64,000 bases of DNA, taken from the NCBI RefSeq assembly GCF_044324785.1, contig NZ_CP172127.1; one strand, given 5' to 3'. Every line of letters begins with the position of its first letter. Within the stretch, counting starts at the first letter, position 1. Shown one piece after another: positions 24,655 through 64,000 of this stretch. Under the pieces are notes generated by a model. It did no database searches, had not been told where the DNA came from, and was given only the letters and a program-made list of their open reading frames with translations. The DNA comes from Escherichia coli (lineage in GTDB: Bacteria > Pseudomonadota > Gammaproteobacteria > Enterobacterales > Enterobacteriaceae). A program made the translations under genes and the position numbers.

Positions 24655-24723
24655 ACCCCCTTTTGATTTCTTGTTTGACACTTGCAGTTGCCAGACCGCA
24701 AGGTGTTTTAACAAATCAAAAGG
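24655..24723 (-). promoter_or_regulatory. IS200 5' leader stem-loop immediately upstream of the tnpA start codon
   Basis: 12-bp arms CCCCTTTTGATT (24655..24666) and AATCAAAAGGGG (24712..24723) with 45-nt loop; RBS and ATG lie directly after the stem on the minus strand. Confidence 0.4.
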
Positions 24724-24739
24724 GGTTTTAATAACTGGC

Positions 24740-25787
24740 TCAAAGCTGAAAGCTTTCCGGCCCCCAGCCTAGCTGGGGTTTTTCTGTGCACAAAAATCCG
24801 GAAACGAGTGAGCGTTTCAGGATTCTTAAACAGACCCTGGATCGGTCAACTGCTCCTAAACTGATCGGCATTACACCTGTCGGCTGCCGTTTTTTCAGCT
24901 CCGTGATCCATGGGCCGGGTTCTTTGGTAAGCAATGCTGCCGCCCTTGCCCCATGGATAAATAATGTCCGGTGGTAGGTATCCCCACGTTTGCTTATCCC
25001 CAGCATGCGAACCTTCCCAGCGGACCCCGTCTGCTTCGGCACCAGACAGACATAAGCGTCAAACTCACGTCCGGATTTAAATGCTGAGGCCTCGCCCATG
25101 GTGGCGACCACCGCCGTAGCGATTAACGGCCCCACACCGGGGATTTCCATTAGGCGCTTACAGTTTTCGCTCTGCCGTGCCACGCTGTTAATCTGTTTAT
25201 CAAGGCCATCTATCTGCATGCCCAGCTCACTCAGTCTGTTGTACTGGTATTCAAGCACAGTGATGAGATACGGCGGCAGGTTCGTCTTCATTCGCTCTAG
25301 GGCTGTCGGTAGCTTTCTGTCCATCGCTGTCCAATCTTTGTGGAGGATTTCACCAAACTCGAGGAGCGTGCCAAGGGTATTAATATGCGAGGTTCTGAAC
25401 TTCACCAGTTGTCTGCGCGAACGGTGCAGGACCAGAACTGACTGCTTCTCTTCCGTTTTAACAGCGATATCTTTACTGGGCTGCTGTACCGCCATCCAGA
25501 TAGCACGCGCATCCATCACATCATTTTTGTTGCCCATGACGAATGCTTTAACGAAGCGAGCTTGCAACAGCCGAACTTTGTGTCCCAGTTTTTTCCAGTT
25601 CCCTCGCCCAATGTTGGGAGCCTCCACAAGCCTCCATACCTATCAGACAGGGTTCCCGGTTGCTGAAGAACGTCAGAAAATCCTTGCTACGTAGCTGCTT
25701 GTCCACCACTTCGCCCGTGTACTCATTGATGAAGTGAACCTGAATCAGATACTTTGCGATATCAACGCCAACCGGTGTATATTTCAT
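24740..25787 (-). pseudogene. IS110-family transposase, frameshifted near 25600
   Basis: N-terminus MKYTPVGVDIAKYLIQVHFINEYTGEVVDK...LIGMEACGGSQHWAREL (ORF 25548..25886), continuing in another frame with MEIPGVGPLIATAVVA...MLGISKRGD (ORF 24740..25627). Confidence 0.75.
24761..24783 (+). terminator. Hairpin followed by a T-run (rho-independent terminator-like), at the IS200 left end and the 3' end of the IS110-family gene
   Basis: CCCCCAGC-CTA-GCTGGGG followed by TTTTT on the plus strand. Confidence 0.35.
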
Positions 25788-51992: not shown

Positions 51993-52414
51993 CCTCGCGC
52001 ATACAGCCGGGCAGTGACGTCATCGTCTGCGCGGAAATGGACGAACAGTGGGGCTATGTCGGGGCTAAATCGCGCCAGCGCTGGCTGTTTTACGCGTATG
52101 ACAGTCTCCGGAAGACGGTTGTTGCGCACGTATTCGGTGAACGCACTATGGCGACGCTGGGGCGTCTTATGAGCCTGCTGTCACCCTTTGACGTGGTGAT
52201 ATGGATGACGGATGGCTGGCCGCTGTATGAATCCCGCCTGAAGGGAAAGCTGCACGTAATCAGCAAGCGATATACGCAGCGAATTGAGCGGCATAACCTG
52301 AATCTGAGGCAGCACCTGGCACGGCTGGGACGGAAGTCGCTGTCGTTTTCAAAATCGGTGGAGCTGCATGACAAAGTCATCAGGCATTATCTGAACATAA
52401 AACACTATCAATAA
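51911..52414 (+). CDS. insB: IS1 InsB frame (expressed as an InsAB fusion by frameshifting)
   Basis: ...[51 protein letters not shown]... Confidence 0.9.
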
Positions 52415-52425
52415 GTTGGAGTCAT

Positions 52426-52578
52426 TACCGTGTTCCCGACAGACGACTCGGTGAAAAAAGTGGTGTGGCTGGCAATCCAGTCTGCGTCCCAGAAATGGAC
52501 GATGCCGTTGAAGGACTGGCGAATGGCAATGAGCCGCTTTATTATCGAGTTCGGTGACCGCCTGGACGGTCACTTCTG
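52426..52578 (+). pseudogene. IS256-family transposase C-terminal fragment (last about 50 aa), abutting the IS1 right end
   Basis: VFPTDDSVKKVVWLAIQSASQKWTMPLKDWRMAMSRFIIEFGDRLDGHF-stop. Confidence 0.75.
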
Positions 52579-52848
52579 AGAAAAGGCATTTACACAGAAT
52601 CCTAAACAGGCTCATTCAGACAGCTTTTTATTTCACTATGGCTATCCCAGAACAATCAGTACAAATAATAAAAGACATATCACAGCAACACTCCACACTG
52701 ACAGCGCAAAAATAAATGCCGCCTTTGTTATCTTCATATACAAGCAACCTGTCCTGATAATCACCAGCTCATGTTTTATTCTTAACCATTCGTCACAAAT
52801 ACAACAAAAAATAACAGCAGCAGCACCGATATCACAATATAAGATACA

Positions 52849-53304
52849 TTATTCAACACCTGAATCCCCCGCCGCTTCTCTCCCCTTTATAAAACGCCCC
52901 TTCCGGAATCCAGACCGCTGCAGTGCACGACGAAGATGACCGTATACCGTCTTGTCATTCTGCCCCGTCTCTTCTGTAATCTCCGCAATACTTAAACCTC
53001 TGTAATACCGGTTCAGTAACGCTCTGCGCTCTTCCAGCGTCAACACACCTCCGGCCGCTCTCAGATTCAGCATCGACTTATTCAGAATACAGCAGGCCTC
53101 TCCGGTAAAAAGAATACGAACAATATCTGTATACTCATCATCACAGAATACAAAATAATATCTGAATGACCTGCCTGACTGCACCCTTCTTCTGTCTGAT
53201 ATGGCATCTTCTATATATCTGATTCGACTGCTTACGGTTCCAAATACCTCTCGCAGGGCTTTTTCAAAATAAATATCTCTCGTCGCCAGGATTATATCCA
53301 GCAT
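52849..53304 (-). CDS. LuxR/FixJ-type HTH transcriptional regulator
   Basis: 151-aa ORF; C-terminal LTLEERRALLNRYYRGLSIAEITEETGQNDKTVYGHLRRA resembles a LuxR-type HTH; N-terminal domain unassigned. Confidence 0.55.
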   Translation of the reverse strand: MLDIILATRDIYFEKALREVFGTVSSRIRYIEDAISDRRRVQSGRSFRYYFVFCDDEYTDIVRILFTGEACCILNKSMLNLRAAGGVLTLEERRALLNRYYRGLSIAEITEETGQNDKTVYGHLRRALQRSGFRKGRFIKGREAAGDSGVE

Positions 53305-53365
53305 CTCTGTACCTCATTATATCCCGGGGGACTCCCCCCGGGACAGATATCTAAATCCTGACCTG

Positions 53366-54631
53366 TCAGAACTCAAAATTCACACCAGCATTCCACGATG
53401 CGGATGACCCACCTGCAGCAACTGCAACTTTTCCTGCCACATTCTCTGTGAAACGGTAGCCCACGCCCACCGCAATGGCCTGCTCATCACGGTAACCACC
53501 AACGGCTGCTGTCGCGTTAAATTTTCCAACACTGTATGGCTGGAAAAGACCGGCCAGTGCCGCGCTCTGGGCTGCACTCTCCCTTAACTCCTTCCGGTTC
53601 TCTTTAATCTGCTCCTGCATATTATTCATTCTCTCTGTCGCCATCTTCTGCCAGGCTTCCGTCAAATCCAGACGATGACTGTTATTCCTTATCGCTGCTG
53701 TATTTGAGGCTATTGCTGCATCCGTCTGCGCCCTGTTCTTCACAAGCACATCGCTGAGATGTTCTGCCTGGCTTTTCGCTTCTTTACGGGCATCCCGTAC
53801 ACTTTTATCTGTATAAGCCCGGGAAACCTGAACTGTTTCATCCGCTTTTTCTTTTATTTCATCCTGAAGAGCAAGAGAAGATGCATCCGTATACGCCACC
53901 GCTGCCGATGTGCCTGCAATAATATCCCTGCTGAGTTCATCACGTACTGCTGTAACCTGACTGTCAGTATGAGCACGGGCATCTCTGTATACACCGCCTA
54001 TCTCACCGCGCAGGGCATCCCCCGACACCCGTACAGCATCTGCAATGGCGTTGTCCATCTGTCCTTTTGTGGCCGCATCACTATCCTTAACACCATCTGA
54101 AACATTTATAATCCGGCGGGTTTCCGGTGCTCCTTTGACACTCTCTCCATATCCCTCAGGCCCGGCACCAACAGATACCACGTTATTTTCTCCCGACACC
54201 TGTGAGCCATGGCCCAGAGCTACAGAACTGGTAGAATCCTGCACAGATGAAAACGCACCAATTGCCGAGCTCTGACGAGAAGAAATAAGTGACGCTTCTT
54301 TTCCTGCAACAGTCCCCCATTCAGAGTCAGCAATAAGTGCATCATGCCCCAGACTCACACTTCCCGGAGAGTTCACAACACCAGAATTATTCCCCAAAAG
54401 CACAGTCCTGTTTGAGTCTAATAAAAAAGAATCATCACCAATCAACCATACATTTCTTACTTTATCAATCGAACGGCCAGCTACTGATTCTCCAACAAGA
54501 AAGCTATTATCTTCGCCAGGTTCAATCGGTCCGATTAAAATATCCTGAGCCTGAGCCTGAGCCGAGAGCAGCAGGGCCACACTCACTGCCAGCGCGCTTT
54601 TCTTTAAAAAAGCATCACGTCTTTTAAGCAT
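53366..54631 (-). CDS. Trimeric autotransporter adhesin, YadA/Eib-like
   Basis: Signal peptide [28 protein letters not shown]; coiled-coil stalk; C-terminal YadA-type anchor ([42 protein letters not shown]...GVNFEF); the track ORF starts 54 bp earlier. Confidence 0.8.
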
Positions 54632-55828
54632 TCTGTTATTCTCCTGTATTATTACTTCACCAGCCAGAACGGTAGTGCGGAGCAAAAATACAGTGATAAG
54701 AATCCTCTTTTATTAATTTAATAATGCCAGGAATATTATTGTGTATAATATGCGCCCTCAATTTAAGCAGCAGAAAAGCAATGACGAGAAAATCATTAAA
54801 ATACATAAAGATAAAACATCATAACTATAATTATAATAAGCGCGCTTATTTTAGCATCTGAACATTTAAAGTACTGCTATCACAAAACAATAAAAATCCT
54901 GGGTAATATCTCTGATGATTGAATGAGAAATTCACGATGTCTGGTGAGAATTCTGTTCAAAACGAGGAATGCAGACATACATGTGGCAGGCATGGACTTC
55001 CACCGATTTAACTTTTTTCCTTCCTTGTATTTACACATCACACATTTTGCGCTACAAAAATTTCACGTGGCACGCACCACGTGATCCGTAGAAAAGCCTC
55101 TTGTTACGAATTTCGTAAACCGCACGTCTGTCTGGTCGTGCGGATTTTTTATCCGTCAACTTCACATGAAACCGCCAGATCACTGTTTCCGGATTCAGAC
55201 ATCAGGCATATTATCATCCACAATGTCGTGAACAAGATCACACTTTTGCAATTCCTTTATTGATCGAAAGCAGTTAATCACGGAAATTAATTACCGGAGT
55301 GAAAGCATTACTGCATCGTAAATATCTACCATTTTTGACTACACCCTCTGACAGAATTTTCAGAGGGTTTTTTATCAGTTTCACCATCCAACCCTGTACG
55401 CCAGAATGGTTTCACTGTCACTCAGTTCTGCTATTGCCTTTTTCATCTCCCTTTACCTTACGTTCTGCCAGAGTCTGAGCCATTTGAACAGGAGGTTATC
55501 ATTGATATCGTGTTCCCGGGCAATACGGGCAACAGAGGCTCCTGGTTGCAAAACCAGTTTAACCATTTGAAGTTTAACTCATTTGAAAATGATCTGCGGG
55601 GTTCTGCGGATAATGTTTTTGCTCCATAACAGGCGCCCACCAGTTTGAAAAGGTGGGCACCTACGTTACCAATACTGGCTTAATGGATACATACGGCGGT
55701 CGGTTCTTACGGTAAAACGACACAACCAAACGCTTCTTATCCTGCAATGAACTGCTTTATTACCGAGTTTAGTGACCGCACAGACACTCACTTTTAAGAA
55801 AAACAGAATGGTAAACAAACTCCATGAA

Positions 55829-56005
55829 TTACAATAGCTCTCTGGCTGCCGCCACAATAGCTTGCGCGGTTAACCCGTACTCTCTCTGTAAAAAGTCCTG
55901 AGTTTCAACCTGGCCATACCGCTCTTTAACCCCCACCCGACGCATGGGCACAGGACAAGTTTCTACAAGCACTTCAGCAACTGCTGAACCTAATCCATTA
56001 TGAAT
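55829..56005 (-). pseudogene. C-terminal fragment of a transketolase-family (C-terminal subunit) gene, truncated by the IS1-family element
   Basis: Minus-strand frame ...HNGLGSAVAEVLVETCPVPMRRVGVKERYGQVETQDFLQREYGLTAQAIVAAARELL-stop. Confidence 0.45.
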
Positions 56006-56780
56006 ACGGTAATGACTCCAATTAGTTGAATTAGGAGTATAATAGCCACTTTTAAGGTTCTTTCATGGTCACAGTTAACCTTCATTGCTCCTGTTGCCAG
56101 TCCGTTCAGGTTTACCGTCACGGGAAGAACCCAAAGGACATGATCGATTTCGCTGCCGTGACTGTCATCGAGTGCTTCAGCTCACTTACCGTTACGAGGC
56201 CCGTAAACCGGGAGTTAAAGAGCAAATCACTGAAATGGCTTTCAACGGTGCCGGAGTTCGCGATACTGCCCGTACGCTGAAAATCGGCATTAATACTGTC
56301 ATCCGGACTTTAAAAAACTCTCGCCACGAAGAATAACGTCATACCCGGTCGCTCATGCTGATATGGCACTCATCTGCGAACTTGATGAGCAATGGAGTTT
56401 TGTCGGCAGTAAAGCGCGACAGCACTGGCTCTGGTACACGTACAACACGAAAACTGGTGGCGTTCTGGCCTACACTTTTGGCCTACGGACTGATTAAACC
56501 TGTCGTGAATTGCTGGCGCTGCTTGCCCTTTTACCATCGGTATGTTGACCACTGACGAATGGGGTAGTTACACCAGAGAGTTACCGAAGGAGAAGCATCT
56601 GACTGGTAAGATTTTTACTCAGCGCATTGAGCGCAACATCTACCTCTGAGAACCCGAATCAAACGTCTGGCCCGCAGAACTATCTGTTTCACGCGCTCTG
56701 TAGAACTTCATGAAAAAGTCATCGGTGCCTTTATCGAAAAATATATGTTCTACTAATTGGAGTCACCACCTTCGTTTGTT
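56006..56780 (+). mobile_element. Degenerate IS1-family element (divergent IS1 relative), frameshifted insA/insB
   Basis: IS1-like terminal sequences at both ends (GGTAATGACTCCAATTAG... and ...CTAATTGGAGTCACCACC); InsA-like ORFs 56065..56336 (CRDCHRVLQLTYRYEARKPGVKEQITEMAFNGAGVRDTARTLKIGINTVIRTLKN) and InsB-like fragments (ICELDEQWSFVGSKARQHWLWYTYN). Confidence 0.6.
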
Positions 56781-57322
56781 TAAAGAACCTGCTGGTCCTG
56801 CCATTAATATTACCTGCTGATTGCTTCACATCCGGATTCCTCGCACTGCGCGCGGGTTATTGTTTCGTTTTCGGCCACGGGGTCGCCAGGGCTCTGTTTG
56901 CAGGCCATGATGGCCTGACCTGTACTGTTTCTCAGGCACTGAGATGTCCGTTTACGCCATTTGTTCCCGGATATCCTTAACCTCTGACGTTTGTTCCCTG
57001 CCCCTCTGTCTGATAACGAATACGCTCACAACGCACAGTACTGAACAATACCGACAACAACATGTCTTACATGAAATTCGCTGTAACATCCACCGGAAAA
57101 CATTTTCAGATATCGGATGAGGTACTACTTCCATTGACAGCGCGAGGTAACAAAATTGATGGTAACTCTGACCATTAACCGTAAACCGCAGGGTATTTTC
57201 AGTAAATCACCGGCAACGCCGCTGCAGAATAAAACGGACACAGCATACAAAATGAAGGCCGGTGACCAGATACCACAGTTGAACGATAAACAGAAACCTG
57301 CTGATAAAACACCGTGGCGACA

Positions 57323-57667
57323 TGACAAAACGCCAGAGCAAAAACCGTAAGCGCATTATTCGTCTTGTGGAACTCTGGCCTGAGTCATTCAACCGGGAAA
57401 AAAACAAAACCACTTAAAGTGGGGATACCTGACGACCTGATACAGGATATCGCCATCCGAGAACTGGCGTTTGGCGCTGGTACATTACATGCAGCAGTGG
57501 CGTCTTATGTGCAGTCTCCGCGCTATTACCGTGCGTTAATAGCAGGTGGCGCCCGTTACAACCTGAACGGTCAGCCGTGCGGGGAAGTGACACCACAGGA
57601 ACAGAAAGAGGCAGAGACCCGTTTAATGATGCTGAATGACCGACGAAAAGACAGAAAACCTCGTTGA
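57323..57667 (+). pseudogene. ProQ/FinO-domain RNA-binding protein gene, frameshifted after about 30 codons
   Basis: MTKRQSKNRKRIIRLVELWPESFNREKNKTT-stop, then in another frame PLKVGIPDDLIQDIAIRELAFGAGTLHAAVASYVQSPRYYRALIAGGARYNLNGQPCGEVTPQEQKEAE. Confidence 0.5.
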
Positions 57668-57684
57668 CTGCACAACAGCGCTGT

Positions 57685-58422
57685 TCACTGAGCTGTAATC
57701 AATGTACAGCGCTGTACCGGGCGATGGGTAATACCGGTCACAACCGGTAACCCCAGAGACAATGCAACTGTTTTTAACGCAATATACTGGCCGGATGTAT
57801 CACCCCGGGCAGCCTGAAAACACCTTTCCACCCGGCATTGTCCGTCAGCACTTATCACCCGCCATGTCTGTTGCAATAAATCCACCCGTTGCGAACATTC
57901 TTCATCAACCGTGGCACTGACCCGTGGATGGCAAATGCTCGTCTGGCTGAGCAGCAACAGGCATCGCATTGTTGCTCCTCCATGTTGTTCCCGCAACCAG
58001 CGTAATACCACCGGTGGTGCTGGACTGGCCGTGTGATTACGTTCAGTAATACGCTCGTGCACCTGTCGGTAAAAGGAAGTACAGAATGCATGAATCTGTT
58101 GTCCGTTGATGTTTCCTTCTGCCGAATGGAGTGTGAAGTGGACGGCCAGCAGACGCGGCCAGTGATCCACCGCCTGCTGAATAAAACGCCGGATTTCCAC
58201 CGGCTCTGAAAGTACGGTTTCGGTTATTTGCACGATTTGATCCCCTTGAATGTTGCTGAACCGGTGTCGGTACGCAGGAAAGCACGCCGAGACCGGTACG
58301 ATGCCTGTTACAGCGAAGAACGAGGAATGACAGACGGGGGCAGCAGGTCGCCAGCACCAGGGACAGGGCTGATTTCCACAATACCAACGCTGGTATTTTG
58401 CACATTGCCAGCGTACCGGCAT
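57685..58422 (-). CDS. Hypothetical island protein downstream of alpA (paralog fragment at 23000..23567)
   Basis: Track ORF 57685..58479 overlaps alpA, so the start is probably later; a second long ORF is open in another frame over the same DNA (57855..58091), so the frame is uncertain. Confidence 0.35.
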   Translation of the reverse strand: MPVRWQCAKYQRWYCGNQPCPWCWRPAAPVCHSSFFAVTGIVPVSACFPAYRHRFSNIQGDQIVQITETVLSEPVEIRRFIQQAVDHWPRLLAVHFTLHSAEGNINGQQIHAFCTSFYRQVHERITERNHTASPAPPVVLRWLREQHGGATMRCLLLLSQTSICHPRVSATVDEECSQRVDLLQQTWRVISADGQCRVERCFQAARGDTSGQYIALKTVALSLGLPVVTGITHRPVQRCTLITAQ

Positions 58423-58433
58423 TACAACACGTT

Positions 58434-58670
58434 TCATGCGGCGACTCCCCGTGATGCTTCGATGCGCTGCTGCATCCACTGCTCCACTTCGCTTCTGTAC
58501 CAGCGGCTGCTGCGGCCCAGTTTGATGGGTTTAGGGAAATGGCCTTCACTGATCAGCTTGTAAAACCATTTGTCGGTCATACCAGTGAAGCTGGTGATGT
58601 AGTTCATGTCGATCAGGGGATCGTCGGCACGCAGCAATACGCTGTCGTGACCTGTCATTGAGGTCAACAT
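58434..58670 (-). CDS. alpA: AlpA-family phage/island regulatory protein (HTH)
   Basis: ...MNYITSFTGMTDKWFYKLISEGHFPKPIKLGRSSRWYRSEVEQWMQQRIE, typical AlpA/Vis-type small DNA-binding protein. Confidence 0.7.
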   Translation of the reverse strand: MLTSMTGHDSVLLRADDPLIDMNYITSFTGMTDKWFYKLISEGHFPKPIKLGRSSRWYRSEVEQWMQQRIEASRGVAA

Positions 58671-58738
58671 GGTCAGAATGTCCTCTGTGAGATTTATGAA
58701 TGTTGGGCAAATGCGGGTGAATCTGCTGAGCTGAGCTT

Positions 58739-59341
58739 TCAGAGCTGGCCTGCTACGGGATACCAGGGATTACCGGCGAGGTAACGGGCTTCCGGATCGC
58801 GCACACCACGACGATCGCGGGCGAAATCACTGAACGCCCATATCAGCTCTTTGAGTCTCTCTTCGCAGTCCGGTGAACGGGGATCCAGCAGCACATCCCG
58901 GGTAATCTGCTTCTGGTACGGTGCCGCTTCACCCGGTGACGCGAAGCCCAGTACGTTGCTCCAGGCATCCAGAATCAGCCGATCCAGTTCAGGGCCGTCG
59001 AAATATTCCTCCCTGACGCACAGCACCACGTGGTATTCCGGTTTTTCAGGATGACGAGTCAGGAGCCAGCAGAGATCACGTCCGGGGGTTGCATTCATCA
59101 GCGCACTGACGGTTTCGATAAAGGCCATACCGAACCAGGTTTTTCTGTCGCTGAAGATGTTGCCATGTTCCCCCGGCAGACGAAGCAGGATCCGCCGTAT
59201 TCGGGAGCAGGGCTGCTCACGCAGCGCACGCTCAAGGACACCGATAACTTTGCTCTGATAAGATGGCCAGAAGGGCGCCATGCTATAGTCGAAATAAGGG
59301 ATAGCATTCATAAGATATGTTCCGTTATACGCAGCCCACAA
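58739..59341 (-). pseudogene. Inovirus-Gp2-like (YagK/YfjJ-family) gene, 5' end degenerate
   Basis: Contains KPEYHVVLCVREEYFDG (compare HYHVILLLNKDTW in the neighbour); the conserved upstream leader is present at 59471..59535 but the ATG after it is lost. Confidence 0.5.
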
Positions 59342-59667
59342 CGCGTCCTGCCCGTGGATGCGCTGACGTGTTATGGCTTGCGTATGGGGTTGATGGAATA
59401 AGTGAAAAACCGCGGCAGAACGGGAAGATCAGGTAACCGACAAGGGACAGAACACCGGATGCAGGTTCAGAATGAATGATCTCCGTTGACTTCGGTTCAC
59501 ATCATTAAGCAGGACAGTAAGGTTTTACCGACGGAGTGTTTCCAGGAGCGAAAGCAGAGAAAAATACCGTTGCATGACTTCAGGACGACTTTTTCAGAAA
59601 ACGAGCTAAGGGCGTCAGCCAACGTCCTGTAGCATAAGCTCAGGCACCGGATGTCGTTTTACAGGGC

Positions 59668-60399
59668 TCACCTGCCATCCAGTAGACGCCCCGGCCCACG
59701 ACTGCAACCATAATTACGTTGCCCGGAACCGTTATGCAACTTCGTTTCATATTTCACGAGATAACTGGCTCTGTTCCGGGCTTTCTGCATCGCTTCCACA
59801 TCACCACGCTTGACCCAGAGCACAGCGGATTCACCCGGCTTTTTGTCTGAAGCCTTCCTGGTATCAGAACATCCACCCGACAAAGGCGTATCATCGGAAG
59901 AAGGGCGAGCATCAGATGATGTCGGTTTACGGAAAGGCGTCCGCCTGGAAAAATGAACCAGTCCATTACCCTGCCAGGGCTCAAGATGCAGAGCACTACA
60001 CCATGCCAGCTTGATCAGTGTCGCCAGCGAAGAAGGAACGGTGAAATCCCCTGGCGAGCACCAGGTATCTTTGTTGAGCAGCAATATCACGTGATAATGT
60101 TTCCTGCCTTTTTCCTTGCCAAACTCCCGGCACCAGAAATAACGCAGAGTGGTTGCACGCACACGCTTGTTGGCACGTCGTTTTTTCCGCTGGTAAGCCT
60201 GAATTTTGGCTTTCAGGGATGCAAAAAAACGAGAAATCACCGCTGAATCCGGATCGGGATCCATGATGGTGACAGGCATATACTCAGGGAAACGTAAATC
60301 CACCCGGATTAACGAGACGGCACGGTGCTGCGCCAGGGCACTGTCGAGAAGGCTGTCAAAACGGGATAACCAGTAAGCATTATGTATTGGTTGATTCAT
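59668..60399 (-). CDS. Inovirus-Gp2-like (YagK/YfjJ-family) protein
   Basis: 243-aa ORF with RBS GGAGAT 10 bp before the ATG; motif RKHYHVILLLNKDTW typical of this island-associated family. Confidence 0.65.
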   Translation of the reverse strand: MNQPIHNAYWLSRFDSLLDSALAQHRAVSLIRVDLRFPEYMPVTIMDPDPDSAVISRFFASLKAKIQAYQRKKRRANKRVRATTLRYFWCREFGKEKGRKHYHVILLLNKDTWCSPGDFTVPSSLATLIKLAWCSALHLEPWQGNGLVHFSRRTPFRKPTSSDARPSSDDTPLSGGCSDTRKASDKKPGESAVLWVKRGDVEAMQKARNRASYLVKYETKLHNGSGQRNYGCSRGPGRLLDGR

Positions 60400-61319
60400 G
60401 ATGAGAGATCTCCGTTGATTTGGATTGACTTCACATCATTAATCACCGCAGTAAAACTTTACGGCGTCCTGTCATTAAGCAACACCAGTGGCTCCTGATT
60501 AGAACAGAATGAGTTTCCCACGAACAAAAAGACAAACCTACACGCAGGGTAAAAACACGCAACAACAGCATGAATGGATTTGAAAACAATATGGATGACG
60601 AAAAATGTCAAAAGTGAAACGGATCAACAGAACGTGCAAACAAAACGTCAGAAACGCAATCAGAGCACTTTCTGGCGCTGTGAATCAACAACAACACCAA
60701 AACCTACAGCTTAACCACATTACTCAATCACGAATGCGAATGACACGTTTAAAACCTGTTTACAGATAACGCCGTAACACGATCATCCCCATCACCATCA
60801 GAATCGATTTTCTCATCCCGAAAATGTTACGTTTCACTACGCACCATAAAAACGATTAACCATCGATAACGTAAATCTCATCTGAATCAAAAAACCAAAA
60901 CCAATCATCACACTTTCGCAATGCAAGAAGAAAAACCACATCATGACGAAAACAATGACCTTACATGAAAAAGCAAAACGTCAGGAATCGTTAATGCCTC
61001 AATCTGATTGTTATCAAAACATCCAGAAAGTCGTTTAACAGAATCGTCGTAAGCACATCGAAAAGAACGTCAGATCACCTCAGGAAAGTTCGGGTTGATT
61101 TAGCGTAAAGATACTTTTCTCAGCTTAACGTCGAAACACAAACCAAAAACCACAAACAACCAAAGCTCAGGAAAGGTTAAACGTCACATCAGTAAAATCG
61201 AATAGCAGATTGATTGCTTAAACAGAAAGGTTTTACAGCAGCTTTAAACTGATTTTAGCTAACGTAAAGATTTACTAAACTGGATGAGTTTCAGACAAAG
61301 CAATGTGTACAGCAATGCT

Positions 61320-61500
61320 TAATGAAAACACTTATAGGGCTGTTTATGAAAACACGTGTATGTCTGGTAAAACACTTAGTAGAAAATACGTGTATAACAC
61401 TTACTGAAATGCTTAGTAAAAATACTTAGTAAAATATGTGTAGAATTATCTATTTAAAAAGATATGTATATAACACTTAATAAAAACATGTGTATATAGT
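61320..61500. repeat. Cluster of short direct repeats and palindromes (iteron-like)
   Basis: AACACTTA(G/C)T at about 61323, 61367, 61403, 61468; CTTAGTAAAA at 61371, 61410, 61423; palindromes ACACGTGT (61349), ATACGTGTAT (61385), ACATGT (61485). Confidence 0.4.
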
Positions 61501-62138
61501 ATCATACCGACATTCTCAACATCTTCAGACTTCCATACATACTGGGTGTTGATTTCTCACTTTTACAGCCAGCATGGAGTTTTCTGTCCTAAAAACAGAG
61601 CAGATTTACTCTGGAATTATTTTTCTGCCCCCGTATTTCAGGCCCCAGAAAAGACAATCCGAAGCAAACCGTTTGTCAGCCTCCATATCATCTTTTACCC
61701 CCGGAAAGTGATCGCGTTTTACAACCAGAATGACAGCCATACTGATTATGTCGTCTCCCGGCCCCCTTCACATATAACATGCATGTCTGTCATTGCTTAC
61801 TGCTCCACATGACCGGATTTCACATACAGGATGCACATTCAGTGTTTTTATCGCCACTATAACAGACAGATTACTGTCGTCTTTACTCTTCAGATTGTTA
61901 ATCTGACCACAAGAACAGCCGAACGGCAAAACGCCCTCCACAAGGGGCACATGAACCATAGTTGATAGCATGTTTTTCCTAATCAAGGAATAGTTCAGGA
62001 ATATTTTATTGCATTAATAACTGGCGAATAATCGTTCTGTGAACACAAAATGCTTTTATTTGTAAATTTTATTGCATTGCACTCGTTTTATTGATATGGG
62101 GTTTAATAACAGATAACCCGGAAAGAAGGAGAAAACAG

Positions 62139-62930
62139 ATGACATTACGGATTAACGATCAGGGGCGAGATAAACAGAATCAATTTTTATCGAAAAATGG
62201 AGAAAATCTGAATTCGTTAAAATCGCGTCATGTGCAGGATAGGCATTTACCTGAATGGCTTAAGGATAAAGTTGCAGCATTCTGGTTTTGTCTGGTGATA
62301 AAGGATATGAAAGTGTCAGGGAGCAGTTACTATGAACTTACCATGCAACTTCCCACTTCTGAAGAATCTGTTTGCATCAGTAAGCTGTCATCCTCAACCC
62401 ATGAGATTCGGCTGGAGATCATCAGGCGATGGATTGATAGTGTAGCACAGATAGAAACGGAAGCTTTTACTAAAAATCTCGTTGATGCCATCTATAAAAA
62501 CTGGAAGGAAATCGGGAACAAAAACCAGGCTACATGGCTTAAAAAAAATCCGGAACAACTCGAGTGGGCATGGAAATATATTAACATTCGTATTCCCGAG
62601 TCACATTTAACCTGGTTTTGCCCCGTCAATAACGAAGAGAAACGCATTGCCATCTTAGCATTGCTTAAAATACTGTATCCCGGAGATATACCATGCCAGT
62701 ACAACGACAAAGAGTTTCATGTCGGGATCTGCGCTGAAGAACATTTTTACAGAAGAATGCACGACGCTTTCAGAAAACAGTTTATCGACGGGAAAAAAGA
62801 TAAACGGGTACAAATTAACGTAAAGATATCACCGTCCGCAAAAAGCGCTCTGGACAGACTGACCAGAGCGAGGAAAACAACACAGCAGGCTATTCTGGAA
62901 CAACTGATTCTGAACGGTAGACTGGATTAA
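62139..62930 (+). CDS. Hypothetical protein, 263 aa, with a possible ribbon-helix-helix-like C-terminus
   Basis: RBS AAGGAGA 7 bp before the ATG at 62139 (track ORF starts at 62091); C-terminal ...VQINVKISPSAKSALDRLTRARKTTQQAILEQLIL. Confidence 0.45.
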   Translation: MTLRINDQGRDKQNQFLSKNGENLNSLKSRHVQDRHLPEWLKDKVAAFWFCLVIKDMKVSGSSYYELTMQLPTSEESVCISKLSSSTHEIRLEIIRRWIDSVAQIETEAFTKNLVDAIYKNWKEIGNKNQATWLKKNPEQLEWAWKYINIRIPESHLTWFCPVNNEEKRIAILALLKILYPGDIPCQYNDKEFHVGICAEEHFYRRMHDAFRKQFIDGKKDKRVQINVKISPSAKSALDRLTRARKTTQQAILEQLILNGRLD

Positions 62931-63928
62931 CTTTCACTACTTCCACTCCTGGCAGTTTTCCTCTTTTTGTAGTGTCTCCCGGCTGCAGGCATCAGGTACT
63001 TTTCCGTCATTTCGTTGCAGAACTCTTCAATGTAGTTAATCAGCTTCTGGTGTGCTTTCACCTTTTCTTCCCCGGGGGACGCTTTCAGATAAATGTCCTC
63101 CTTTTCCACAAGTGTATTTATAAACTCTCCCGGACATCCCTGGTTATAAAGCAACGTGAAAAACAACACATTCCCCAGTCTCTCCAGTAACTGCGATTTA
63201 ACCCTGTATTGTTGTTTGCTGAGGATTGATTGTTTTATAAAGCTTAGTCTTGTTAAAAGTTGTTCAAATCCCGGTTCCAGTTTAAAAACAGATTTTAATA
63301 CCAGGGACTGATACTCCTGATAAAAAAGTTCAAACGTCGGGGATGCAGACTGACGAACAGATTTGGCTACAACCCATGGACTAAATCCCATGATTGGGAT
63401 TTCCTTCGCTCCCTCCAGCGCACTCAGAGGTAGTCCAGCAATCCATGCGTCCAGCTTAGCCGAATCAATATCCCCGCTCAAAACCTCATACAAACTGCCC
63501 GTGAACGGTTGAGTCGGTTTTTTTGTTGTTTTACCTTCTGATTGCCTGAATCCATCCACTTTTCTCCGGATATTACGCGGAATCAGCATAAAAGGCGGGA
63601 CATTAAGTGATAAACGTTTACCCGTCATACGATACCAGTGGCCCACCTCAACCTTAATCCGTGTATCTGGCCTTGTATCTGGCCTTGTATCTGGCCTTAG
63701 CTCAAGTGCTATTATGTTAAGCAGGTACAGATAACGCACCGTATAACAGTCAAAATGTTTCTCCGGATCAAACGGCTCTGATCGTTCTCTGCACACAAGT
63801 CCGCTGCGCTTCAGTATTCGCTGGGTATCTTTCCAGGCCTTACTCTGAAGAATGGTGGTAACTCTGGCTTTATTAGCAATCTCACGCAGCGCATCACTTT
63901 GTTGTGCCGTCATCTCTTCCCTCCACAC
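62927..63928 (-). CDS. Hypothetical protein, 333 aa, with an internal RPDT tandem repeat
   Basis: Long ORF convergent with and overlapping the previous gene by 4 bp; contains a 12-bp x3 DNA tandem repeat encoding RPDTRPDTRPDTR. Confidence 0.5.
   Translation of the reverse strand: MWREEMTAQQSDALREIANKARVTTILQSKAWKDTQRILKRSGLVCRERSEPFDPEKHFDCYTVRYLYLLNIIALELRPDTRPDTRPDTRIKVEVGHWYRMTGKRLSLNVPPFMLIPRNIRRKVDGFRQSEGKTTKKPTQPFTGSLYEVLSGDIDSAKLDAWIAGLPLSALEGAKEIPIMGFSPWVVAKSVRQSASPTFELFYQEYQSLVLKSVFKLEPGFEQLLTRLSFIKQSILSKQQYRVKSQLLERLGNVLFFTLLYNQGCPGEFINTLVEKEDIYLKASPGEEKVKAHQKLINYIEEFCNEMTEKYLMPAAGRHYKKRKTARSGSSES
63663..63698. repeat. 12-bp tandem repeat x3 (GTATCTGGCCTT) inside the 62927..63928 ORF
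   Basis: Three exact head-to-tail copies. Confidence 0.9.
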
Positions 63929-64000
63929 TTTGTCACTCCAGATTTTTTCACGTCCATATTACCTGAATGATAAACCGGATTAGTGTGATCCGGTTCAGCG

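Follow-up and report, generated by a model that had tools for sequence, protein, structure and literature searches.

An open reading frame of some 30 codons that ends at a TAA and is followed, in another frame, by most of a ProQ/FinO domain raises the question of what this E. coli island locus still encodes: a dead RNA chaperone gene, a gene that is read through its frameshift, or one member of a protein-small RNA pair. In the 64,000 nt of E. coli DNA analysed here (the window), the stretch 57159..57667 on the plus strand is very probably a non-functional remnant of a gene for a FinO-domain RNA-binding protein of ~169 aa, located in the tRNA-associated island backbone of E. coli, as judged from comparison with its homologues. 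As such the feature is already known, being an ordinary pseudogene annotated by PGAP in hundreds of genomes. The PGAP label 'ProQ/FINO family protein; frameshifted' covers exactly the equivalent of 57159..57667 (8060..8568 in the loci L001 and L002, 100% identical to the window), and many complete E. coli chromosomes match the 701 bases around the feature at 100% identity.

Reading frames and lesions of the remnant

The sequence-only reading had described an inactivated, frameshifted FinO-domain gene on a genomic island, and this description is borne out by a Pfam match (PF04352), the PGAP label and the alignments with intact homologues. The comparison with intact homologues that it called for confirmed the frameshift, and its two peptides with a change of frame between them were recovered from the sequence and the ORF list. 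Its interval 57323-57667 does lie within the gene; the true span, however, is 57159..57667, and a second lesion, upstream at 57322/57323, had been missed. The ATG of the first peptide lies at 57322, one base off the start given there, and what had been taken for 30 N-terminal codons is really the middle fragment of a three-piece pseudogene; intact homologues start at an ATG equivalent to 57159. The elements of the gene are:

57144..57147, plus strand: GAGG Shine-Dalgarno-like motif read from the sequence, 11 nt ahead of the ancestral ATG
57159..57667, plus strand: whole pseudogene, decayed copy of a ~169-aa FinO-domain (PF04352) gene, with the ancestral ATG at 57159-57161 and the stop TGA at 57665-57667
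57159..57350, plus strand: fragment 1, frame 0, ancestral basic, low-complexity N-terminal extension, 63 codons to the TAA at 57348-57350
57322..57323, plus strand: lesion 1, one AT unit lost from CATATG, intact GACATATGAC to window GACATGAC, frame 0 to frame 1
57322..57417, plus strand: fragment 2, frame 1, 31 codons (MTKRQSKNRKRIIRLVELWPESFNREKNKTT) with the TAA at 57415-57417
57398..57404, plus strand: lesion 2, A7 tract, intact GGGAAAAACCAAAACC to window GGGAAAAAAACAAAACC, frame 1 to frame 2
57404..57667 (start approximate), plus strand: fragment 3, frame 2, rest of the FinO domain (TKPLKVGIPDD...RKPR)

The GAGG columns at 57144-57147 are invariant in an upstream alignment of six loci. Fragment 1 is out of frame past 57321, and its translation up to there corresponds to residues 1-55 of the intact homologues; the Met at 57322 corresponds to ancestral residue 56, behind 55 basic, low-complexity residues. 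Fragment 2 codes for a basic stretch and the first FinO-domain helix (residues 56-82 of the intact 169-aa protein), and fragment 3 lacks the first ~20 positions of the PF04352 profile. Relative to the ORF that starts at 57322, the +1 frame is open from 57365 to the TGA at 57665-57667 and reads ...KPLKVGIPDDLIQDIAIRELAFGAGTLHAAV...RKPR or, in a longer excerpt ending at the same TGA, ...KPLKVGIPDDLIQDIAIRELAFGAGTLHAAVASYVQSPRYYRALIAGGARYNLNGQPCGEV...RKPR. Instead of the single uninterrupted ORF of a functional family gene, the window copy thus carries two frame-breaking indels relative to its intact homologues.

Both indels were placed by DNA alignment with intact homologues of 169, 159 and 174 aa, and both are of the replication-slippage type. 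The AT deletion severs the basic N-terminal extension of 55 residues, leaving an ORF of 114 codons for the FinO domain, and the A insertion splits the first domain helix from the remainder of the domain. Lesion 2 combines a C>A change with a 1-nt insertion, turning AAAAACC into A7C, and the nearest in-frame allele at this site, GGGAAAAAACAAAACC, has an A6 tract with a P>T exchange. Its protein is represented by cluster P0082, which is the window allele with an A6 tract (EKTKPLK), in frame at this site. Lesion 1 alone is found in L005 (OkiPb01701), L018 and L019, where the annotation shows a hypothetical ORF of 63 aa next to a ProQ/FINO ORF of 114 aa. The AT deletion was probably the earliest event, because it is also present in alleles without the A-tract change; the C>A exchange (P>T, making A6) would have followed, and A6 would finally have become A7. 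Between them, the two slippage-type indels break the gene into three reading frames, and no folded FinO domain would be made from the window copy.

Lesion 2 lies in a homopolymer, a classic site of sequencing error, and A6 occurs in two assemblies; that the frameshift is a homopolymer sequencing or assembly error in a gene that is really intact is nevertheless extremely improbable, because the A7 allele is found with its exact 71-nt context in 348 of 5426 complete E. coli genomes (~6%), which come from many laboratories and hosts. Lesion 1, moreover, lies outside any homopolymer and recurs, again with an exact 71-nt context, in some 361-370 of the complete E. coli genomes, and it would keep the gene split even if the tract were A6. 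Indeed, the two complete genomes with the exact A6 allele, IMT5155 and ECCNB12-2 (in one of its four copies), both keep lesion 1. Together with its island, the allele that has both lesions has reached about 6% of the complete E. coli genomes. Four copies of the region are present in the single genome of ECCNB12-2 (NZ_CP033635.1; L004, L019), with both A7 and A6 tracts among them, and the island backbone can therefore be multi-copy within single genomes.

The A7 tract might alternatively serve as a recoding or slippage site through which the gene is still expressed, translation starting at Met 57322 and yielding a 114-aa minimal FinO-domain protein either by transcriptional slippage to A6 or by +1 ribosomal slippage of tRNA-Lys on AAA AAA, possibly as a reversible on/off switch. 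An in-frame A6 version does exist (P0082 and the two complete genomes), but with A7 and A6 at 348:2 the tract is not visibly switching. ORFs of 114 aa that encode only the FinO domain are common in databases (P0056, P0058, P0068, P0077) and have at least two independent origins, in one of which stop and start overlap as ATGA, as is typical of translational coupling, yet other copies of the two-ORF lineage later acquired stops. Minimal FinO-domain proteins can work, as exemplified by Neisseria ProQ. A product of the third frame only would miss about 20 positions at the start of the domain profile. Transcriptional slippage in E. coli is efficient only on runs of ~9 or more A/T, which counts against recoding at a tract as short as A7. 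A conserved shift site with slippery motif and stimulator was not found: all diverged homologues examined, those at 60-90% identity among them, are in frame here with AAAAACC, the alleles and homologues other than the window type having AAAAACC or AAAAAAC, no Shine-Dalgarno-like stimulator or slow codon occurs at A7, and no good ribosome-binding site precedes 57322. Because the site is in frame elsewhere, the allele ratio is so skewed, stimulator and ribosome-binding site are lacking and the tract is short, we regard continued expression by recoding as very unlikely; rare transcriptional or +1 ribosomal slippage on the seven A residues could still yield traces of a 114-aa product.

Changes private to the window number six non-synonymous and six synonymous, and among the 18 codon changes common to the window and L005 there are six non-synonymous, 11 synonymous and one unclassifiable, all counts from alleles that are young and mosaic. 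The 6:6 ratio of window-only changes is not clearly neutral, and the 88 codons downstream of the A7 tract, which are still open, count against decay, in an allele that is young and a family whose alleles are mosaic.

Family membership and recurrent erosion

The profile search for a FinO domain that had been suggested gave a strong match to PF04352 (ProQ/FINO; gathering score 27 bits), in which the downstream frame by itself reached 62.3 bits (E=4.9e-17) and the joined (repaired) sequence reached 78.2 bits (E=5.7e-22). Residues 12-98 of the downstream frame matched profile positions 23-107 of 109. Against PDB sequences, an intact homologue hit the ProQ N-terminal domain (5nb9, 1.6e-11), FinO (1dvo, 2.3e-11), NMB1681 (3mw6, 2.9e-09) and RocC (7rgt, 2.2e-08), and its PHROG matches were all to families without assigned function. 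The equivalents of ProQ K35, Y70 and R80 are kept in the motifs PLKVG (K), SPRYY (Y) and GARYN (R). At the equivalent of ProQ R58, where R58A lowers RNA binding (PMC7192607), the window allele has His (CAT, 57487-57489; LHAAV versus LRAAV). The same His occurs in L007 and in the intact 164-aa member P0014, and we therefore rejected the R>H exchange as a marker of decay.

The protein search returned 272 clusters in Escherichia, Shigella, Salmonella and Citrobacter. All 1124 places of the gene in E. coli (1124/1124) were chromosomal and none was on a plasmid. The plasmid collection contained only distant FinO genes, its sole match above 90% being a 4.8-Mb record that is evidently a chromosome. 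In the phage collection the matches were limited to a single one, to Sodalis phage phiSG1 at 42%, which argues that this is not a gene of sequenced phages. Our literature search found no paper on an island FinO-domain clade and no experimental study of a member.

Intact homologues are 159-174 aa long and 88-93% identical to the window at the DNA level, and include WP_447312239.1 (169 aa, L006), WP_047628057.1 (159 aa; L008 likewise encodes 159 aa) and WP_000537018.1 (174 aa; likewise 174 aa in L009), with WP_141115997.1 as a named 114-aa member of the island family. In a second lineage (L007, L020, L021 and L022; e.g., L020 610-1124) the N-terminal extension was lost through an independent 5-nt insertion, resulting in a 57-aa and a 114-aa ORF, with the TGA of the former overlapping the ATG of the latter (ATGA), and an in-frame TAA was gained afterwards in L007 and L022. 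This independent lineage with its later stop shows that erosion is recurrent: the clade has eroded more than once and independently, with the N-terminal extension lost separately in two lineages. Chromosomally integrated FinO-like genes tend to erode, according to a recent review (PMC9977716), and the erosion observed here fits this published view of the fate of FinO-like genes after the passage from a mobile element to the chromosome.

Neighbourhood, partner RNA and island context

The sequence-only reading had further proposed that a cognate sRNA for the FinO-domain protein is encoded beside the gene, for example in 56780..57320, and might still be active, in analogy to the protein-sRNA pairs FinO-FinP, FopA-Inc and RocC-RocR (PMC9977716). 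The features flanking the pseudogene are:

56065..56756, plus strand: IS1-family remnant, frameshifted and with an internal stop, abutting the upstream block, as annotated by PGAP in GF60 (the best-matching record) and ECCNB12-2
56770..57158, no strand assigned: upstream non-coding block, a divergent promoter region shared with close relatives, with no identifiable RNA gene
57685..58233, minus strand: convergent gene for a 182-aa hypothetical protein, with the stop codons of this and the FinO-like gene 17 nt apart here

Within the proposed interval, 57159-57320 is ancestral coding sequence, which speaks against an RNA gene there, and the rest showed no Rfam match, no excess fold and no conservation upstream of intact homologues such as L009. 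The search with covariance models for structured RNAs near the gene, likewise suggested beforehand, found no Rfam family: a scan of 52000-64000 at E<=1 yielded none near the gene, a scan of the whole window and five homologous loci at the gathering threshold yielded nothing adjacent to it, and an E-value scan of one PICI-type locus detected int-alpA far upstream only and no C4/CI-like RNA. The fold of 56757-57158 had no excess stability over shuffled sequences (z=+0.96 on the plus and -0.52 on the minus strand), the scan of 56400-58400 for terminator-like sites gave three against 2.2 expected from shuffles, and no promoter-like site was found in 56757-57158. A weak hairpin with a T-rich tail at 56840-56856 (plus strand) is kept in close relatives, and among close alleles conservation extends over ~120 nt at 56770-56890, the available copies of the upstream block being >90% identical to each other. 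However, this conserved 5′ part of the block overlaps the start of a divergent small ORF on the minus strand, whose first codons lie in the block and which is truncated here by the IS1 remnant, as judged from the translation in L006, and the block has lost 200 nt in L007, whereas ahead of the intact gene in L009 little of it is left. FinP and RocR are not adjacent to their own chaperone genes, which also counts against an sRNA linked in cis. No conserved structured RNA with an intrinsic terminator was thus found beside the gene, and a cognate RNA encoded there would be highly improbable, the idea being an analogy unsupported at the locus itself. We also considered a minus-strand hairpin followed by a T-run over lesion 2 (57422-57410) as an antisense terminator and rejected it, because the hairpin reflects the palindromic coding of the conserved P-L-K-V-G and is not found at the equivalent position in L010.

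Several other elements were noted in the window and the loci compared with it. Where the pseudogene meets the 182-aa gene there are two copies of the self-complementary 10-mer ACAGCGCTGT, spaced 31 nt apart (57675-57684 and 57706-57715); these are its only copies in 64 kb, with 0.05 expected, and the first is perfect only in the window-type allele, the second being conserved in most alleles. Rfam matches at the gathering level elsewhere in the window were isrN (6057-6199, minus strand, 138 bits), STnc490 (24660-24781, minus strand, 129 bits) and a group II intron catalytic domain (19666-19752, plus strand, 64 bits). The int-alpA RNA motif (RF02996) was detected between the integrase and the next gene in L023 (5365-5432, plus strand, 46.9 bits, E=2e-07), and no such match was present in the window. 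The YadA-like adhesin gene at 53366-54685 (minus strand) has annotated lengths of 1134, 1548 and 1647 nt in complete copies of other records, suggesting repeat-number variation between near-identical islands.

The close relatives of the pseudogene lie in the backbone of tRNA-linked pathogenicity islands. In one example the order is tRNA-Phe, integrase, afa/dra adhesin cargo, Rpn, the FinO-like gene and the convergent 182-aa gene, followed by an AlpA-type HTH gene, an inovirus Gp2/YfjJ family gene, a YeeP-like GTPase and Ag43; in L016, another such locus, the backbone goes on beyond the GTPase with antirestriction, a RadC-like JAB-domain gene and CbtA/CbeA. All PAI-type loci examined have the 182-aa gene together with the FinO-like gene; it matched nothing in PHROG or NCBIfam. 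Upstream of the same pseudogene, AR_0085, BEN2908 and IMT5155 have a PTS/transketolase/LacI-regulator cluster, in place of which the window has the degenerate IS1 (56065-56756) and a transketolase gene fragment (about 55800-56060).

More distant intact relatives, at 58-68% identity, reside in PICI-like satellites (L010-L015 and L023; e.g., L023 4106-13630), in the order tRNA-Gly, integrase, HTH, antirepressor, Icd-like, DUF4222, DUF927 or D5 primase, SSB, FinO-domain gene, hypothetical gene and PerC; the literature search found no paper discussing a FinO-domain gene in such satellites. The presence of a frameshifted DUF4222 remnant upstream in L016 suggests that the pathogenicity-island backbone may have descended from a PICI-like satellite module.

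These contexts invite a wider conjecture, namely that the clade is an RNA chaperone dedicated to PICI-like satellites and pathogenicity-island backbones of enterobacteria that controls replication or excision via an antisense RNA, that the two-ORF forms (one of them ATGA-overlapped) are functional minimal chaperones and not decay intermediates, and that A6/A7 is a reversible switch. Taken jointly, these proposals are very unlikely to hold. The finding itself, a fixed pseudogene that standard annotation flags, is of little consequence, and its value lies in its by-products: a precise lesion history (AT deletion, C>A, A6 to A7), two independent lineages losing the N-terminal extension, and the recognition of the intact relatives as a large chromosomal clade apart from FinO, ProQ and the plasmid FinO-domain genes, with some members in PICI-like replication modules. 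A study of this clade would be better served by an intact member than by the window allele.

Comparison with known FinO-domain systems

The ligand of the intact ancestor was presumably a hairpin-plus-U-tail RNA from the same mobile element, in the manner of FinO, FopA and RocC. With FinO of F-like plasmids (1DVO, NF010317) the island protein shares the FinO domain (2.3e-11), a similar size (169 versus 186 aa), a basic and probably disordered N-terminal extension ahead of the domain, and carriage on a mobile element. However, plasmid FinO genes are just 33-36% identical to it over the domain, its score against NF010317 is 61.9 bits, below the cut-off of 136 for FinO proper, and the island clade is exclusively chromosomal, has no tra/FinP context and gave no FinP-like Rfam match. 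ProQ of E. coli and Salmonella (5NB9, NF003434) aligns with the FinO domain over ~105 residues (E=1.6e-11), but the island protein has neither the linker nor the C-terminal Tudor-like domain and ends about 10 residues past the FinO domain, scores 53.5 bits against the NF003434 cut-off of 127 for ProQ proper, and is island-borne, whereas ProQ belongs to the core genome. Because of the sub-cut-off FinO and ProQ scores, the low identity to plasmid genes, the near-absence from phages and the exclusively chromosomal places, we regard the family as a distinct chromosomal island and satellite clade that is neither FinO nor ProQ proper.

FopA and PcnR, which are small FinO-domain proteins, regulate replication of the mobile elements that encode them (PMC9977716). 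The distant intact relatives in PICI-like satellites stand directly after primase and SSB, a position that would be compatible with a replication-linked role; FopA and PcnR, in contrast, are plasmid-encoded, and the closest plasmid homologues of the island family are only about 40% identical. The ProQ/FINO genes and pseudogenes that PGAP annotates on E. coli islands, finally, represent the same locus and the same allele, with no difference from the window feature and with the same neighbours: the 182-aa hypothetical gene, the AlpA-type HTH gene, the inovirus Gp2/YagK-YfjJ family gene and the YeeP-like GTPase.
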